DNA of 63,963 nt, the filler included, from Thelocarpon superellum (lineage: Eukaryota): assembly GCA_026025795.1 (NCBI GenBank). It is 4 parts of 4 records of this genome, joined end to end, with 100 filler letters (N's around TTAATTAATTAA, not from the genome) between each part and the next. Parts side by side here need not be neighbours in the genome. Positions count along the whole stretch, not along the records: positions 53,971 to 63,963 come from JAPEUG010000546.1; 3 more parts are not named here. One strand, given 5' to 3'. The first letter of the stretch is position 1. Each line of letters starts with the position of its first letter. Position numbers and translations under genes: made by a program. Under the pieces are notes generated by a model. The model worked only from the letters and a program-made list of their open reading frames with translations, was not told the DNA's origin and made no database searches. Below, piece by piece: positions 53,971 to 63,963 of the stretch.

Positions 53971-55060
53971 GTACAGAAGACGGGGCGGCGGAATACCGTC
54001 GATTCTTTGTTATTGGGAAGGGAAGAAATGAGTTTGGTGCGCGGTCGCTGGCATTCCGTCTTTTTAGAAGGCACGACCGAGATGGCTTATCGTCCTCGCG
54101 AGCCTCTTTCTCTCTTTCTCTCTCGGCATCTCTCGACGTCGGGCTGTCCGTATCTGTCGTCCGTTACCCTCCAGAATTCTCGTCTGTCCCGTCCGTCTCG
54201 CTGTGACGCCCACTCACCCCACACTCATTCACTCGCGTGTCTCCACTCTTCTCTCTCCTCGTCTCCTTCGTTCTCTGATTGTCTGTTCTACTCTCAATAT
54301 GTCCTTTCTTTCCCTCGGCTCCATGTCGTTGCGCACGGGGTATAGACCTCAATGGACGACGAAGACGAGAAGAAGGATGGAAGAAGGAATGAAGAAAGAA
54401 AGAGAACGATAAGAAGTGGAAGAAGGAGAAGGAGGGGACGGAAGAAGGGGAGGGGGAAAGGGGTAATGTAATTACTAATTCCGAGCCTGGCCGAAACACC
54501 AAATGGGCAGACAGGACAGAGAGCGGGGGACGGTTTAATGGGCGGATGCGGACGTGGGTACGGACGCATAACGAGCAGACCGAGGCAGGCAGCAACGATG
54601 GATCAAAGCCGTCCAGAACCGCCGGGTCGGCTGGACACGTTTTGTCTCATTCTGTCGTCTTTGTCTATATTACGTTCCTGTGTTCCTGTGTTCCTGCGTT
54701 GGAGAGAGAGAGGGAGAAGGGATGGGAGAATAGTCTTCTATTCTCCTCTGGTAGATAGAAATACGTAGACGGATCAATCAAATAATCGACCAAGCAATCA
54801 TCAAACTATTGTCGCTCACAATACTGTACTGTTACGACTTATAGGAGTACCAGTAATCACTGCGTATGTCTGTTCCGAGATGAAGTGAATCGTCGTTTCA
54901 TGTCAAAGATATACATTCTGGAGGAACCATGGAATGCGTACAGCGTATAGGAAACAGTTGAACCGGATGTATATCTGACTCGAAGCAGAGTCATGACCAG
55001 AAGCCTGAGTCCAGATGCATCATGCCTTCCGCTCCGCCCAGAAGACAGAAGACAAATTCC

Positions 55061-56052
55061 TTACGCCAACTCGGGCGTATTCGGTCCATCCAGCTCATTA
55101 ATCTCCCGTCCACGAGGCGGGACAGGCATGTTCGGAGGCGGGTATTCGCTATAAGGCGGCTTGTCATCGACCACTTCGCCCTGGCTTAGACCAGGAGGGT
55201 GGCCGCCCACGAAGGCGCCACCGTTCCCGCCATCGGCGCCCCGCACGTACCGCCGTTCGGCACCTCGTCGCTGCCAGAAAATGAAGGCCAGTGCGGTCAG
55301 CAGAGCCACGCCCAGCGGGACGCCAACCGCGGCGCCGACCGTGGACGCGCTTGGTGACGGCTCGGGACAAAATTCCTGCGTGGAGTTGTTGTTGACGCAG
55401 TCGTCGGCAGAGTTAGAGTTGGAGGTCGAGGCGGAAGTCGAGGAGGAGGTCGATCCCGTGGAGGTCGACGTGGGGTTCGGCCACGGGTCAACGCCCACTT
55501 TGAACACCGATGGCGCAAGCCCGTTTGGCAGACCAATCTGCGTGCCGCAGCATCCATCGCTGCCTGTTTCGTAACAGCAGAAGGAGTGGTTGTCCGGTCG
55601 GCACGACAGGATCGGCACGTCCGTGCTTTGTTGTACTGTCGTTCGGAGCCAGGTTAGCTGAGATTCGATTGGACCGGCCAAGGGCTCTGGGGAAGATCGT
55701 CCTGACCCTCCGTGCACGATTTCGCGCAACTCGGGTCCTTGAACGTTGGATCGGTACAGGCACCACGATAGATGTAGCCCTGGCCACCGACACACAAGCC
55801 CCCCTGGATGCACGTGTCGGAGTCGAAGCTAAAGCCCTGGCAGCAGGCGCTGAACGTCGACGTCTTGTTGCAAGGGTAATGGTCCGTCGCCACCGTCTTG
55901 CCGTCCGGGTAGTAGCAGAGTGGAGGAGACGATGAAGACGCTCCGCCTGGTGACGAAAACAAGACGGGAAGTGAGAGGAGGAGAGGAAGATGAAGAAGAA
56001 GGTTCAAGAGTCGAGTGGCGGAGACCTCCGGATTGCCTCGATCTGAACCCAT
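55061..56052 (-). CDS. Single-pass membrane protein with Cys-rich ectodomain and S/T stalk (Mid2-like architecture), 2 exons
   Basis: Hydrophobic leader, CYYPDG...CN...SACC...C...GLC...YRGACTDPTF.DP.C...C, FCC...CC, S/T run, TM VGAAVGVPLGVALLTALAFIFW-QRR, tail with repeated EL motifs. Confidence 0.8.
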
Positions 56053-56825
56053 CTTGCTCTCGTGGAATGTGGATGAGAATGGGAATGGCAATGGAAGCCC
56101 TTCCGTCGCTATGGAACGGAGACAAGCAAGAGTGTGGGATGTTCTTGACAGATCGTGGCGAAAGAAGTAGCCCCGTTACTTGTCGCGGTCCAACGGCTCT
56201 TAAATTGCTGTGCTCCGACCATCTTCCCACCACTACGGTGGCTTGAACCATGGATTTCGAGAGTCTCTAGCGTTTCGCCCCCAAGTGTCACCCCTGCAAT
56301 CACTTGGAAGCCGTGGGCCGCCACCAGTTCTCCAGGATCATGTGACCAAGTGACCGAGATCTTCCCCTCTTGCCTACGAAGCAGCTATCGACCGAGAAGT
56401 CGTTTCTAGCTTTCAGCACTGCCTCCGTAGCCGCCGTGCAATGCAGTGACCAGGAGCTCGCAGCACGAAAGGCTTAGCCATGGTCCGCCTTTGCCTCGCG
56501 GTTGACACGGCCCGACAACCAAGTAATTCACGACTTGGCCCACACCGCGAGGCAGCTCCGACGCGGCTCCGCCTACTGGAAACTGCCTGGTGCACCGCTA
56601 GACGTGCTAGTGCTTACGGATATCGCCGACGTAATCTGTTTCAAAGCTACGATTAAAGAGGGAGGCCACAAGGCCTGTGCCACGGGGAGGCACGATGGGT
56701 GGTTGGCATTCGAGGGACCGCCCATCAAGTAGACCTCAACACCTCTACTCATGTCGCTGATTCGTTGTCTGTTTCCTGTTTCCTGCTTCTATCCACACTG
56801 CAACGCGCACGATCTGCATCTCACC

Positions 56826-58768
56826 CTACTTCACAGTAAACCTACTCCTTGCCCGCAGCGCTTTACCATAGAAGAAGAGAATAAAGATCCCGCCGATACA
56901 GGCGCAGGTGAGGGAGGCGAGGATGCTGAGGCCCTTGCCGACGCCCAGGTTAGCGTAGAGCGGGTGGGCAAAGATGATGGCCGCCGCCGCGAGCGACGAG
57001 CGGCAGAAATCGTTGGCGGCGAAGAGCGAGGCGGCGTATTGTGGGTAGGTCAGCGGCAGGTAGATGAAGATGCACTGGAGGATGATAAAGACGCCAACGG
57101 TGAAGAGGGCCAGCGCCACCACCGTGCCCATCCAGTGGATGCTGGGGTTGGCCAGCCAGGCTGCGTGAGGCCCGGCGGATTAGCAGCGGTGGGCTTCAAG
57201 GGCATGGAGAGCCTTACCGAACATGAAGAGCCCGATGGGCACCAGGAAACTCGAGAACAGAGCGGGGATGAGTCGGCGCTCCTGGTCCCCCAGCCCGTTC
57301 TTGAGCAGGTCGGGTTCGACAATGTACCACAGGTAGGCCCAATAGATGCCCACCGAGGAGATGCTGGCGACGGGAATGGCGAGGAAGGCGAGGCCAGTCT
57401 CGCCCACGTTGAAGTCATACATGACCGGGTAGACGAGGGGAAAGACCTCGAAGAAGGAGTAGAAGATGCCGTACACGAGACTGACGTAGACCGAAGTAAA
57501 GGTCACGGCCGGGTCGAGGATGGTGATCTGCCACGGCTTCCACAGGTAGAAGAGCGCCGTGTCACGCGGAGACATGTTGGCCTGGTCAATCTCGCTCTGG
57601 CTCTTCATCTTGTCGTTACCCGTGAGCTTCCGCAGCCGGCCCGCCCGTCGGAGCAGGATGTTGGAACCCGACGTTTCGGGGAGGAAGCTGAAGAGCAGTA
57701 GGAACGTGGGCCCCGCCATCCACAACATCTCCCAGAGCGACCAGCGCCAGTTCTCCGCCGGCACGCTGAAGCCCGAGATGATGGGACCAAGCGCTGGTCC
57801 GCCCGTGGCGAACAGCGCCCACAAGGAGACGGAGTACGGGAGCTTGATGAGCGAGTACAAGTCTCCCAACGACGCGCCGCCCGTGGCCAGACAGGGCGAT
57901 CCGAAGAAGCCCAGCAGGAATCGAAGCACCATCAAGCCGGCGAAATTGTTGACCAACGCTGCCGGGACGCAGAGGATGACGAACACGGCAAACGTAGCCA
58001 GATACGGCGGATTGCGCCCGATGGACGGGATTTCGCTCAGGGGCGACCACAACATCGGCCCAATGCCGTACGCAAGCACGTACATGGACAAGCCCAGCGA
58101 TCCCAGTGTCCCCGAGATGCCAAACTGCTCCATCAGCCCCGTGATACTGGGCGTGTAGATGGCCGACCCCATGTACACCACGAGCGTATACAAGCTGCCG
58201 CCGCGTCAGTATGGCCGGCCACGCTGCTTCGCCGGTGATCTCAGCCCACTCACCAGATCTGGAAGGTCACGAAATACTTCTTCCTCGAGCTCCAATTCTG
58301 CGGGTTTTCCGGGTCGTCGGTATCATACCAATCCACCAGAATCGTCCCATCATCCAGCTTCTCGGGGACGATGGGCCGCGTGGGTTCCTTCTTGACCGTG
58401 ACGGAGCTGTAGGCTCGCTCCAAGTCCTGTCGGGTTTGAACCTTGTGCAGACCCTCACGCGTGGCCATGCGGCTCAAGGCAGTGGTGTGCGAGGGAATTG
58501 GCTCGATGTCCAAGTCCTTCTCGGTGTCCGGAGTGGCGTCGGCCGTCGCCTGCTCCGGCGCTTCGCTGCCTTGTCGAGAGACCTCTTTCTCCGCGAGGGA
58601 AGGGTCTGCACCCGTTGCTTCCGCCGACGCATCAGTGGAGTCGGTGGGTTTGACATAGCACTTGGGACACCGCCAGTCGGCCCGTTCCTCTGGGTAGAGC
58701 AAGACCTTGTTCTTCGTGGCCAGGCGGATCAGCTGGCCCAGACCAGAATCCCGCAGAAGCGCACTCAT
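56826..58768 (-). CDS. MFS drug:H+ antiporter (DHA1; Flr1/Mdr1-like), 3 exons
   Basis: VDWY.TDDPENPQNWS, YMGSAIYTP, GPMLWSPLSEIPSIGRNPPY, RFLLGFFGSPCLATGGA, LPET, ERRL.PA, YAASLFAAND, LRARSRF. Confidence 0.94.
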
Positions 58769-59576
58769 GGTGGCGGTATGAGTGCGAGAGGGCGCAAGGG
58801 CAAGTGTACAGGAAGGCGCCGCCCGGGGAGAGCGAAGGGACAGAACATGAACTAGGGGAGGGACGCGGCGCGTGCGGCCTTATATCCGGCAGGGCGATGG
58901 CCCACAACACTTGCGCCTTGGCCGCAGGAAGGTTGGCCACGATTGAAACGGCGCGCTACTGGGACAACGGTAAGTCGGGGCCATTCTCGCCGATGGTACG
59001 AAGTACGATCGTCAGAGGCGGGGCGAGGGAAGTCTAGCACCACTGGTACGAGCACAAGTACTCGGACGTGCCCTGCAGCGATTCAGGTGCGAGGCCATCG
59101 TACGAACAGGCGATGATCGAGCGGATGGCGAAGGCAAAAGCGCCAAGATGGACGCTGGCGCCGCATGTCAGGACTCGGTTGGCAGGAGACGCTCCCGGCC
59201 ACGGTGGAAGGCTCATGCCGAAAGACCCTCCCGTCACGCCACGCATGAGCTATGCCGCGAACGGGCAGGCTCGGCCCACTATGACATCGCTGCAACCCTT
59301 TGCTCTGCCTTTTGTCCGATTACTGATCCGTCTAAACTCCGATCACCACGAGTAACGTGGGTATGTAACGCGGGCGACACGATCGCACGCGTTATGTGAG
59401 GTTCACTGAGTCACGGACCTGCTGAGTAAAGAGTTGCCACCCTCGATCGTCCGTCATCGCGTTGATAATTTGGCGGCACGCGTAGCGAGCAGGGAGAAGC
59501 ATGGGGCGTGTCTCAGCGGCCGCTCAATGGTCGAAGCGGGATGCGGGAGGCGGGGTGCGGGACTAGGAGGGCGAAG

Positions 59577-59924
59577 CTAGCGCGCCGCGTCAACGTTGGG
59601 CAGGTTGGCGCAGAGAGCGCATGCGTTGGCATCTAGCGCGGATCGAAATACCAAAGCACATGCCTGCCTCCTCTTATCGCCGTACTGGAGACGTCCTGCC
59701 ATGACCCAATCGTCCGTGGAGACAGAGCAGTAGTCGGTATGGTACACGTCCCAGTGCGAGTAGCCAAAGTAGTTGGTCCCGTTGCAGGTCGCATTTTCGA
59801 AGGTATAAGGTCCATACTTGAGGTTCCAATTTCTGGCAGCGACGAGTCCCGCCGCGCCCCAAGGATGAAGGAGAAGAAGCGGGAGAAGAACGGTCGAGAT
59901 GAGAAGGGCCAGAGAGCTCTTTAT
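59577..59924 (-). pseudogene. Small secreted Cys-containing protein gene with an apparent ATG>ATA start mutation
   Basis: CAAACA-ATA-AAG precedes KSSLALLISTVLLPLLLLHPWGAAGLVAA (signal-peptide-like) and an aromatic-rich mature region with 5 Cys; the frame is otherwise open. Confidence 0.55.
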
Positions 59925-60409
59925 TGTTTGGATTGGTGGCGACGGTATAACATGTCGGTTGGTCCATTTGGAGCGATGCCGGAGATCAGGTAGGCTGCTG
60001 CTTCGAACAGCTCCAGTGGGAGTCATGACCCAGTCTGAAGTACGGCAGTCTAAGACTTTCGATGGCCATTTCATTCCCAGCTGGTGCAGTAAGATGATGG
60101 TACGCAGACGATGCAGAGAGGCTCGGCCTCTTCGCTGCAACGCGCGTGCTGTTCCGTTATCCATGCACAACCCCTTCCTCACAACTGCACTGCTTCTCGT
60201 GGACTAGACCATGACGCTCGTGGACAAGCATCGACAATACAGTTCACATGCCCCCACATTATGGATTTCACGTCACTGCCTGTCTCTGTCAATGGCAGTT
60301 GACTAGAGCGCGTTGACTGCTATTGCGGCCAATTTCCACTGAACTCTACTTGGGTCTTCCTGGACTGTTTCAACTCCTTATATGTGGTAATGATAGAGAG
60401 TGGAAATCC

Positions 60410-60438
60410 ACACGCATTGACCAATAGTCAATGCGTGT
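60410..60438. repeat. Perfect 12-bp hairpin (ACACGCATTGAC-caata-GTCAATGCGTGT)
   Basis: Exact reverse complement arms with a 5-nt loop. Confidence 0.85.
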
Positions 60439-60810
60439 CTGCGTACTGAATACTTACGAGGTTGTAACCATACACATGTTCCGGCGCTAGGTACCCGAGA
60501 CTTAACTGGAGCCCTCTGCGCCCCTAACTGGCCGTTGGGCCTCTAGGTAGGTGCTTTCCGTTCGTTAGCTTCGCCTCTACCCAAGACGCGTCACGGCATC
60601 CCACGTCACGCCTCCTCGTCCGACTGCTAGATAGGGCAAAGTAGGACACGCGCCACCGTCCTCCATGTCCCATCATTCATGACAAGCCCAGGCTACGTGG
60701 GATTCGATCACTTCGTCCATATGCAATGTTTTTGGATTTCCTTGTGCAACATGCAGAATCGCCGCGTCTATGAAGCGGGGGAAGCTCCGTCCTCCGTCGC
60801 CAGCCAGATA

Positions 60811-63800
60811 TCAAGTAAACTCCGGCCATCTATTATAGCGCTGTAACGCCGGTCCGTCCCACTGCTCTCCGTACGAATTGGTCCGCAGTCCGTCAAAGAA
60901 ACCATCCTGCGCATGCGTGATTGCATCAAGCCACGACGAGGGCTCGGGATGTCGAGACCACTGCCCGAGGTCAGCAGAGACGCGAGGCGTCGGGTGGTGA
61001 AAGATGGCATACCTGATTATGGATGTGATATGCCCAGGCACCTCGGAAGAAATTCTGCAATGTCCGGTTCCGCGGCCGATACGGATCCTCCTCCAAGACA
61101 TAGTCGAGCGCCGCCGACTCCGGATGCGCCTCATCATCCACACCGTCCCGCCCGACAAGCTGGTTCGCGAGAGCCTCGCCGTGGAAGGTCCGCCACTCGT
61201 GCGGCAGGGCGCCGGTCTTGCCTTCGAACACGTCGCTGTAGTAGGTATGACAGGGTACGGTACACTGTCGTCCGCGAACATGGTTCATCGTCGTCGTTGA
61301 CGGATCGAAAAAGGCCGTGTCGAGCATCAATAGCTCGTCGTTTCGCCGGTCTTTCCACGCCATGCGTCCGATGACCTTGGGGTGGTAGTTCATCCCCATC
61401 CGCACGCCGCCGTGCAAGAGGTAGGTCGATAGGGACGAATTCGCCGTGAGTGACATCACCGCCGTGTTGTAGTCCGCCGGATGCGACCGCTCGACCCAAT
61501 GCTCCGCGAACGCATGCTGTCCCGTGACGGGATCCGGGAGGAGGAGGGGCCGGAAGTCACGGAGGAGGAGGATGTCCATGTCGCAATATACCCCGCCGTG
61601 GAGGTGGAGCACCACGAACCGGACGAGATCCGACACCACCTCCGGGAACAAGGCCATGCGCGGAGGAAAGACCAGCCACCGTTGCTTTTCAGCGTCCTGG
61701 ACGACGCCATCCGCCACGGGGATCTCCCCGTCGCCCATTGGAAGAGCCGACGGCTCCACGCCCTCTTTCTGGTGCGCCAGCGCTACCTGGCCCGGAAGTG
61801 GAAGGCGCTCGGGGAAGCGCCAATGTTTCACCACAACGTCCCCTCGCTCCACCAGCGGACGGAACCGTTCAAAGAGCGGATCGCGGTGCAGCATCGCTTC
61901 CGGGGCCTCAGGATCCCGATCCGCGTCCACCCACAGCCACAAGCGTGAGCACGGCAGATGCTGCGTGTACAAGTAGCTCTTGATGAACAGCTCCACCCGC
62001 CAAGACGCCGGCCCGGTCCAGTAAACGTGGAAAGGAATGATGGGTCCTGCGCACGTCCCAATGGACGCCTTGGACGCGGGCTCCGCCGCCGAAGGTGTGA
62101 CATATTGAGACAGCGTGTTCCCGTGGCCATCCGCATCGGCATATTCTGCCTGCACTGGATCTTGCTCGCTGGCACGAATGCCCGCGTCTGCCTTGGGGAG
62201 AACAAAGTACTCCTGCTCCGAGCTCGCCAGATACTCGAGACACCTGAGGCCGTCGTGATTCGTCTCGCTGGGCAGGTAGAAGCCGCTGCATCTCGACACG
62301 ATCAAGGACAAATTCGCCACCGTGTCAGTGTGCGGTCGCCTTCCCAGGTAGTCATCTATGGGCACCACGGCACTCTCCGGACGATTGATCCAATTCGCGT
62401 GAACGTTGATGGTCGGAGTGTGGCCCGAGTTCCACGCCAGCGCCGGCTTGCTCCGCCAGTCGGCCAGTCCTGTCTGACACCAGTACAACAGCTGATACAC
62501 GCTTCCGTAGACGACTCCAGCGACCATGAGGTTGCGGATGATGGAACCCACATTCCGCACGTTGCCCGCCGGGCCCGTCATGCGCTCCGTCCGCCGGCTG
62601 AGAAGAAACCAGAGACTCGACAGCCAGCACATCAAGATGCCCAGGATGGTGTGCAACGGCAGCCGAGAGGGACTCAGCACCAGTAGGGAGAAGGCGCTAC
62701 GGGGTACCGACAGGAAGGTGGTCGTGAGGGGCGAGGTGGCGCGCACGAGTAACAGCGTGAAAACAAAAACGAACCAGCCACCGATGCCGCTGCAGATGAA
62801 GATGGTCCAGAAGACTTTGACGTCCAGGACGTAGCAATTCCGTTGCATGTCATTCCACTCGTTGGAGAGGAGGAGCAGCGGGGCCACCAGCAGCGTCGCC
62901 ATCATGGCTGTGTAGCGCAGCACAAGCCAGAAGGCGCGCCACTCGGCCTTGGAGCTGAGCAGGTCCGTTGTGGTGGGGGACACGACGTCGGCATCGCTAT
63001 GCGCATGTTGCTGGGCCACGATGGCGGCCATCACGCTTCGGTACGTTTGCAAGAGCATGATGGGATAAAGAGCCGTGAAAAAGGACGAGAGCAGGCCCAG
63101 GGCCAGACTGCCGGGGGTGACATGGAACGTGGAGCTGGTGGTGGCGATGAGCAAGTTGAGCGTGGCGATGAGGGACGAGGAGATGGTCGAGGCCGAGTGC
63201 GAGGTGGCATTGAGCGCCGTCGTGAGAACGAGCGACAAAGGAATGATGGCGATGCGGGTGAGAAGGTACATGGACAGTTGGGCCTGGCTGTACCCCCGTC
63301 TGGTCAGTCACCACCAAACTGCGAGATAGAGCCCTCATACGTACGCAAAGGATAAATTGCTCAGCACCACCTTGGCCGCGTATACGGCCGCAAGGGGAAG
63401 GACGCGACGCGCAATGGACCAATCCCACATCGCATTATTGTCCGCCGCGGGACCCACCCCCCCGGCGCGCCATAGGGGTGAACGGGCATGGAGGCCTCCT
63501 AGATCATCAATGTCGAGGGGAAGCGTGCTCGCATTAGGGAACCGACGTGGGGTCAGAGCCAGCTGGATCTCGCGAGGCACGGGGAAGCGCGTGATGGTTC
63601 GAGTGAAGCGTGCGGCGGCCAAGACCAACAGCCAGGTCATGAAAAGCTGAAAGCAGGTGGTCATCAACGGGTAAGGAAATCTACGTCGTCGTCAGGAGAC
63701 ATCTGAGACGGCGATTGCGCGGGGATCGATGCTCACTTATAAACGCCCACTACAACCCGAGGGGCCCGGTCAGCTCTTGGCCTCGCGCCACGGCGGTCAT

Positions 63801-63955
63801 GCCGGAAGAGGCCACTTACTCCACATCAAGAGCTTATTTGTCAACACCAGGCCAAAGCCCGTGCCCGCCGCCCACACGACAAGGAAGGCGACGTAGAGCT
63901 GCCATATCGACGAAGGGTTGGACAGCCAGGATTGAAGTGTGGTTTGCTTGGACAT
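60811..63955 (-). CDS. Fusion protein: nucleotide-sugar transporter (TPT/SLC35-like, 10 TM) + signal anchor + DXD glycosyltransferase (GT32-like); ~969 aa, exons 63955-63820, 63749-63737, 63680-63345, 63287-61013, 60960-60811
   Basis: Transporter motifs LTNK, KFPYPL.TT.FQ, LSNLSF, TSPLTT.FL. GT motifs FHVYWTG, SDLVRFVVLHLHGGVYCDMDILLLRD, YNTAV, YHIHNQW. Exon lengths sum to 2910 nt (in frame). Confidence 0.85.
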
Positions 63956-63963
63956 CGGTTCAA

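Follow-up and report, generated by a model that had tools for sequence, protein, structure and literature searches.

A ten-helix transporter-like domain joined to a GT32-type glycosyltransferase in one reading frame of the fungus Thelocarpon superellum

The DNA analysed here, referred to as the window, comprises 63,963 nucleotides (filler included) of Thelocarpon superellum (GenBank assembly GCA_026025795.1) and consists of four joined parts, the last of which (positions 53,971 to 63,963) comes from JAPEUG010000546.1. On the minus strand of this part, at 63955-60811, five exons form a single spliced frame of 969 codons plus stop. The gene is a real, ancient fusion encoding one 11-helix membrane protein of the Golgi or endoplasmic reticulum (ER): ten transmembrane helices (TM1 to TM10) of a transporter-like half are followed by a short basic loop, an eleventh helix (TM11), a stem and a glycosyltransferase (GT) domain with the motif HGGVYCDMD. 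A first-pass annotation of the same DNA had proposed a frame of about 969 aa with this order of parts; all of them were found as it described, and the frame has no internal stops. Judging from sequence comparisons and structure models, the balance tips slightly towards the reading that the N-terminal half would import a nucleotide sugar and the tethered lumenal GT32-type domain would use it.

The two halves meet inside exon 4, where the codons ..SRRTER / MTGPAG.. are read in a single stop-free frame. The standalone transporter-like proteins of other fungi end in ..WFLVARREEGR.., the counterpart of which in the window is ..WFLLSRRTER. The start of the standalone GT orthologs, M-A-(D/E)-x-x-x-A-R-..-L-(L/F)-R-N-L-.., comprises a short basic tail and one hydrophobic helix and aligns residue for residue with MTGPAGNVRNVGSIIRNLMVAGVVY of the window. 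As the join matches both ancestral ends, the fusion lost only the last few residues of the transporter, the stop codon, the spacer and the 5' leader of the GT. Because the join also coincides with the initiator Met and the signal anchor of the standalone GTs, helix 11 is the GT's own old type II anchor; the TM11 region aligns with the N-terminal anchor in 18 of the 19 GT-only proteins shown (the exception, P0042, starts after the anchor). The previous claim that the junction of the two halves is not a gene-merging artefact held, with one open frame inside exon 4 and the same architecture in many homologs.

Nucleotide-sugar transporters (NSTs) have both their N-terminus and their C-terminus in the cytosol, as established for the solved members. 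Provided that this topology holds here, ten helices plus one anchor give the GT the same orientation as that of a type II standalone GT, and the join would keep the native topology of both halves, with the transporter termini cytosolic and the catalytic domain lumenal. The loop between TM10 and TM11 contains five Arg and would fit the cytosolic side, and the conserved Cys and the N-x-S/T sites of the GT part would fit the lumen. The eleventh helix after a short basic loop was seen as predicted, and the GT should therefore face the lumen. Since a cytosolic C-terminal tail meets a type II anchor, an architecture of this kind can arise without a new helix.

Of the 120 listed homologs of the exon-4 product, 60 span both halves, with a coverage of 86-100%; the coverage of the remaining 60 is 53-72% and mostly limited to the GT half. 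The aligned set (41 from the both-halves group and 19 from the other group) was picked by rank and by having names. The fusion was found in at least 41 homologs, and the transporter-like part runs into the anchor helix in all of the 41 aligned. Many lichen fungi share the fusion, and the species with names that carry it are Thelocarpon, Letharia lupina, Cornicularia normoerica and Sticta canariensis. The unfused form is present in Dothideomycetes, among them the lichenised Trypethelium and Bathelium, as well as in Geoglossomycetes, Peltula and others. As the unfused forms include those of the lichenised Trypethelium and Bathelium, the fusion follows phylogeny rather than the lichen lifestyle. 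In the phylogeny that had been suggested for mapping the fusion, an unrooted FastTree tree of the GT half, one branch (support 100) divides fused from unfused sequences, which is compatible with a single origin of the fusion. Both standalone genes are present in the same species in Polyplosphaeria fusca and Neofusicoccum parvum. Metagenome contigs scanned with the GT alignment yielded 65 loci, among which 14 have a transporter-like part directly upstream (9 distinct open-frame translations), and all 14 show one open frame across the join. The protein P0033 of Icmadophila ericetorum (672 aa, partial, in the group with 53-72% coverage) has only a TM4-TM6-like part before the anchor helix; the cause is either mis-splicing in the gene model or an ongoing loss of the transporter half in this lineage.

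The C-terminal ~560 residues are identified by profile and motif as a GT32-type (PF04488, Gly_transf_sug) DxD glycosyltransferase, which agrees with the earlier assignment and with the Pfam search proposed for it. The PF04488 scores were 29.2 bits for P0001 and 28.9 bits for P0003 (the NCBI protein M1838_004722 of T. superellum) at a cutoff of 23 bits, and the relatives reached 28.5-36 bits; the match lies over the HGGVYCDMD motif and comprises only 33 residues. The D.D pattern is present in all 60 aligned sequences, fused and unfused, and the C-terminal tail encoded by exon 5 is also found in the standalone GT orthologs. When the GT part of the AlphaFold2 (AF2) model was compared with known structures, the GT-A enzyme YeGT (8ovt) came first, with a Foldseek probability of 1.0 and an E-value of 0.044 over 184 columns, at moderate model confidence. 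An Atlas model of the standalone GT P0036 matches PF04488/Caps_synth clusters (TM-score 0.83 by that row), and a single-sequence search of the PDB sequences (phmmer/hmmsearch) gave weak matches of the DxD region to toxin-type GT-A enzymes only (YeGT, E 0.49). The closest GT relatives are uncharacterised ascomycete proteins of ~600-660 aa, many of them misnamed 'snoRNA binding protein', a name of the family that has no support from any domain match seen.

Helices 1 to 10 belong, as a divergent member, to the TPT/nucleotide-sugar-transporter (SLC35, DMT) fold, and the homology of this half is visible only at the level of profile and fold. Its standalone relatives are 390-500 aa in length and were found with 53 matches, in Leotiomycetes and Dothideomycetes. 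Searching 1.84 billion representatives with a profile of these relatives (A1) retrieved 490 proteins at E<=1e-3; 13 of the 20 lower-ranked listed matches pass the Pfam TPT gathering score (57-126 bits), and the A1-profile E-values of the matched proteins tested were 1e-16 to 5e-27. When A1 was compared using hhalign with ten TPT-positive proteins, the probability was 99.95% and the E-value 6.5e-38 over 321 columns, which included all ten helices; R159 was paired with R113, and R341 with the invariant K267. One canonical relative, P0299, has close homologs that JGI names 'GDP-fucose transporter C1' or SLC35C1; as these names are automatic and identity is ~20%, SLC35C1 is a candidate subfamily.

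The same assignment was obtained from structure. The AF2 model of the standalone protein P0126 (pLDDT 77) had Vrg4 (5oge) as its top PDB match in Foldseek (E 4e-7, TM-score 0.72-0.74 by target); CST, TPT and SLC35B1 came next. The AF2 model of P0003, which lacks TM1, has membrane helices with a pLDDT of ~80-98 and matches CST, Vrg4 and TPT at E ~1e-4, so that the AlphaFold check called for at the outset gave matches of the membrane part to transporter structures. The original description of a 10-TM TPT/NST transporter is accordingly supported by fold and by profile homology (hhalign and Foldseek), but not by a direct Pfam match. Searches with the UAA, EamA and CSG2 models likewise gave no match at E<=10 in the Pfam scan, which covered the fused protein, four further family proteins (three fused and one GT-only) and eight standalone relatives. 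The names 'GDP-mannose transporter', 'Myo-inositol 2-dehydrogenase' and 'C4-dicarboxylate transporter', which are attached to members of this family, are unsupported by any domain match seen. Features conserved in the family are TSPLT, the TM4 Arg and the TM9 Arg (the latter at the position of the Lys that is invariant among the canonical proteins), and the loop motif GGIAGGGLFEFD between TM2 and TM3 is invariant in 23 standalone proteins. In P0197 (973 aa, filed under Carpinus fangiana) a transporter-like part (residues 30-456) is joined to a pectate lyase domain, which suggests merged gene models or fungal sequence in the assembly of the plant.

Basic residues in TM4 and TM9 have a substrate-binding role in the structures of TPT and NST proteins, and both positions hold Arg in the window. 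All 23 standalone proteins have the TM9 Arg, but only two of the 41 fused ones do (the window protein and P0004, the closest relative of the window protein). The TM4 position is covered by 25 of the 41 fused proteins, and 24 of these have Arg there. The window copy retains 35 of the 47 standalone-invariant residues (74%), the highest share among the fused proteins, across which the range is 25-74%. Omega values for the TM half, the stem and the GT core were 0.22-0.23, 0.25-0.28 and 0.12, respectively (dS ~0.6), all from the only fused-lineage pair with unsaturated dS and so effectively from a single independent comparison. By its substitution pattern the TM half is a constrained coding region under purifying selection, not a relic. 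The ratio of TM to GT divergence is alike in standalone pairs (61-79% vs 72-86% identity) and in fused pairs; a relaxation of the TM half after the fusion is supported neither by these identity ratios nor by an omega of ~0.22.

In the preferred reading, the N-terminal half would be an antiporter that brings in a nucleotide sugar (most likely a GDP-sugar) against a nucleoside monophosphate, and the tethered GT would transfer the imported sugar at the lumenal face to an acceptor, either a glycolipid or a glycan. The two standalone proteins of unfused fungi would work as partners. Fungal GT32 enzymes use GDP-mannose. A GDP-sugar is favoured because of this use and because the nearest relatives of the transporter-like half are SLC35C1-like. 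Channelling of the donor from one half to the other would be plausible. A wider scenario may be offered tentatively and is held to be possible rather than probable: an orphan SLC35C1-derived transporter and an orphan GT32-like family of Pezizomycotina might form a dedicated import-glycosylation unit, which would have been welded in the ancestor of Lecanoromycetes and Thelocarpales into a channelling 11-helix polypeptide, with the later loss of the TM9 Arg, often to Glu, marking either a substrate switch or a non-transporting scaffold.

Several observations weigh against import by the N-terminal half coupled to use by the GT. Pfam TPT (PF03151), the match expected for the N-terminal half in the first-pass annotation, was absent at E<=10 from P0001, P0003, three other fused proteins and 8 standalone relatives, and the family profile A1 had zero matches at E<=10 among the PDB sequences. 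Two inserts that are absent from canonical TPTs lie between TM2 and TM3 and between TM6 and TM7 (cytosolic by NST topology), and the window copy of GGIAGGGLFEFD, in 63341-63680, is degenerate (..AGGVGPAADNNAMWDW..). The P0003 model has a pLDDT of 68.7 as a whole and of <50 in its C-terminal part, with moderate to low confidence for the GT domain. In 39 of the 41 fused homologs another residue stands in place of the TM9 Arg (E in 16, M in 7, S in 6, G in 4, I in 2, and T, Y, V and N in 1 each), and these 39 homologs retain only 25-63% of the standalone-invariant residues. The window has kept an in-frame Met at the old GT start (62581-62579). In the metagenome scan, 51 of the 65 GT loci had no transporter-like match, including 24 unfused loci with >=3 kb of upstream sequence, and no conserved neighbourhood supports a partnership. 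The two genes are not neighbours in unfused fungi, and an origin of the fusion via read-through of neighbouring genes was rejected as a present-day pattern in view of these 51 loci; the genes may still have been adjacent in an ancestor. With 39 of 41 copies lacking the TM9 Arg, transport is in doubt for most of them, and the label of a 'self-supplying module' may fail for most of the fused clade; the window copy keeps this residue.

The main alternative is a real fusion protein with a ten-helix half that does not transport and would act as an anchor, as a localisation or stability module or as an acceptor-presenting module, comparable to Csg2 in the yeast MIPC synthase. This is considered rather unlikely, though far from negligible. 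The loss of the TM9 Arg (16 times to Glu) fits it, as do a dN of the TM half about twice that of the GT core and a lower identity of the TM half. According to PMC11594620, Csg1 and Csh1 are regulated by Csg2 in their stability, transport and expression. In the ESM Atlas, the standalone protein has among its neighbours two Ascomycota clusters with PF16965 (CSG2) in 27-43% of their members, which is a lead only. However, PF16965 itself gave no match at E<=10 in fused and standalone proteins, and the nearest profile relatives are TPT and SLC35C1-like proteins, not Csg2. The window copy has both basic residues and 74% of the invariants, the TM half has an omega of ~0.22, and the nearly equal ratio of TM to GT divergence in standalone and fused pairs reveals no clear relaxation after the fusion.

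It is improbable, and clearly less probable than a non-transporting half, that the Thelocarpon locus has two products, with the GT made alone from the Met at 62581-62579 via an internal promoter or internal initiation and the upstream frame giving a separate product or none. The ATG of the window does stand exactly at the start position of the standalone GT orthologs, but only six codons, with no stop and no intergenic DNA, separate the TM10 tail from the old GT Met. Most of the fused relatives displayed lack a Met there and still have an open frame, as have the 14 of 14 fused metagenome loci across the join, and purifying selection acts on the upstream half. A chimeric assembly or a decaying pseudogene is the least credible explanation by a wide margin. 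The sole contig seen to bridge the join (60897-62764) comes from run X1, which is probably the source sample and so not independent; yet the same architecture is found in dozens of independent assemblies and in the named genomes of Letharia, Cornicularia and Sticta, the 969 codons contain zero stops, and the splice sites and the microexon are conserved.

Known members of GT32 are Och1, Sur1/Csg1, Csh1 and A4GALT. The GT half resembles these enzymes in its PF04488 match above the cutoff, in the DxD motif and in the N-terminal type II anchor of the standalone orthologs; it differs in a larger lumenal part of ~560 aa with a long stem, in the conserved Cys and N-x-S/T sites, and in the ten helices placed in front. 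The transporter-like half shares with the SLC35C1-type and other TPT (PF03151) transporters, and with Vrg4 (5oge), the ten-helix DMT fold (Foldseek TM-scores of 0.68-0.74 by target), profile homology over all ten helices and, in the window copy, TSPLT, the TM4 Arg and a basic residue in TM9. In contrast to these transporters, it has ~20% identity, the two inserts, Arg in place of Lys in TM9, a covalently attached enzyme and a transport function that is predicted.

Three further systems bear some likeness to the fusion. The yeast MIPC synthase combines a GT32 enzyme (Csg1/Sur1 or Csh1) with a polytopic membrane partner, Csg2 (PMC11594620); there the two are separate polypeptides, whereas the membrane partner in the window is TPT-derived and lacks a Csg2 (PF16965) match. 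A GT92 protein with a TPT domain is mentioned in passing for Ostreococcus tauri in PMC5082852, and is likewise a union of a TPT/NST domain and a Golgi-type glycosyltransferase in a single gene. It belongs to a green alga and to GT92, whereas the window gene is fungal and GT32-like, and the comparison made here covers domain content. Non-covalent assemblies of NSTs and GTs have been reported for SLC35A3 with MGATs (PMC6453868); these too couple the importer of a donor to the enzymes using it, there by protein complexes and here by a peptide bond. In the open-access full-text literature, no report of a transporter-GT32 fusion and no characterised ortholog were found. The first-pass statement that there is no characterised example is thus upheld for this family in that literature, but a TPT-GT92 protein of O. 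tauri had already been mentioned in PMC5082852. New here are the different GT family, the fungal clade, the defined and topologically seamless junction, and the link between two orphan families.

The direct hand-over of cargo from Golgi nucleotide-sugar transporters to particular glycosyltransferases is an old idea that is hard to test, and no genomic hint of the usefulness of such coupling is stronger than a selected fusion fixed by evolution across a whole fungal class. The fusion ties together two uncharacterised fungal families that are misnamed 'GDP-mannose transporter' and 'snoRNA binding protein'. If the import-and-use reading is true, it would be a 'Rosetta stone' pairing an orphan transporter and an orphan GT for a glycolipid or wall glycan. 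Standalone versions of both families are present in culturable fungi (Alternaria, Neofusicoccum), in which knockouts, co-immunoprecipitation and glycomics are feasible.

The features of the gene are listed in Table 1. According to the NCBI taxonomy, the lichen fungus T. superellum belongs to Thelocarpales, leotiomyceta incertae sedis; its NCBI protein M1838_004722 (919 aa, marked partial) is 100% identical to the window. The four introns of the fusion gene are 52-70 nt in length and all of the GT..AG type. The large exon had been placed at 63287-61013 in the earlier note; its size (2.27 kb) and its end at 61013 stand, but its acceptor is, from the alignment, more likely at 63283 (donor GTATGA) than at 63287, the position also used in the NCBI model, because the homologs read ..SNLSFAY/AQL... 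The choice alters one residue (Y for Q) and leaves the protein length the same. The true start is probably upstream and outside the window, and the ATG at 63955 may not be the start, because the frame runs open through the final base of the window (63963) and the N-terminus of the standalone relatives is ~100 residues longer than that of the window protein.

The 13-nt microexon is real, as judged from its conservation. Its product ..GVYK.. matches 'W(T/S)GVYKFPYPL' of the relatives, and a unit of AG, 13 nt and GT that codes for GVY lies ~70 nt upstream of the FPYP exon in six of the seven fused metagenome loci examined. The loci L062-L064 represent the most divergent fused lineage (GT identity 44%), and the 13-nt microexon pattern was not found upstream there.

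Table 1. Positions of the parts of the fusion gene, counted along the window
Feature	Position	Strand	Remarks
Exon 1	63820..63955	-	TM1 (..LYVAFLVVWAAGTGFGLVL..NKLLMW); Kyte-Doolittle peak 2.05; aligns with the TM1 region of standalone relatives
Microexon, 13 nt	63737..63749	-	..M-G-V-Y-K..; between GT..AG introns of 70 nt and 56 nt
Exon 3	63341..63680	-	TM2, long cytosolic loop (degenerate GGIAGGGLFEFD insert), TM3 (..SNLSFAY)
Exon 4, 2271 nt	61013..63283	-	TM4-TM10, join, TM11, stem and most of the GT domain; one open frame
Exon 5	60811..60960	-	Conserved C-terminal tail (WSRHPEPSSW...RWPEFT) and stop
Transporter-like half, 10 TM, introns included	62582..63955	-	TM4 Arg in ..LLTRIAIIP..; TM9 Arg in ..FLSVPRSAF..
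Fusion point	62579..62584 (62582/62581 boundary)	-	Last Arg codon of the SRRTER tail, then ATG at the start Met of standalone GT orthologs
TM11 (IIRNLMVAGVVYGSVYQLLYW)	62480..62542	-	Former type II signal anchor of the GT; AF2 helix 357-383 of P0003
PF04488 (Gly_transf_sug) match	61541..61639	-	Includes the DxD (DMD, 61582-61574)

Downstream of the fusion gene, at 57180-58205 on the minus strand, an open frame has an MFS_1 (PF07690) match of 95.7 bits; no link to the fusion gene was seen. The contigs of four DNA runs were compared with the window, and the pieces from the moss-metagenome runs X2-X4 (95-99% identical) are short, with none over 62560-62600. The moss-metagenome runs X2-X5, which belong to another study, contain short low-depth pieces that are 95-99% identical to the fusion gene (60811-63963), and a close relative of T. 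superellum may have been present in those moss samples.

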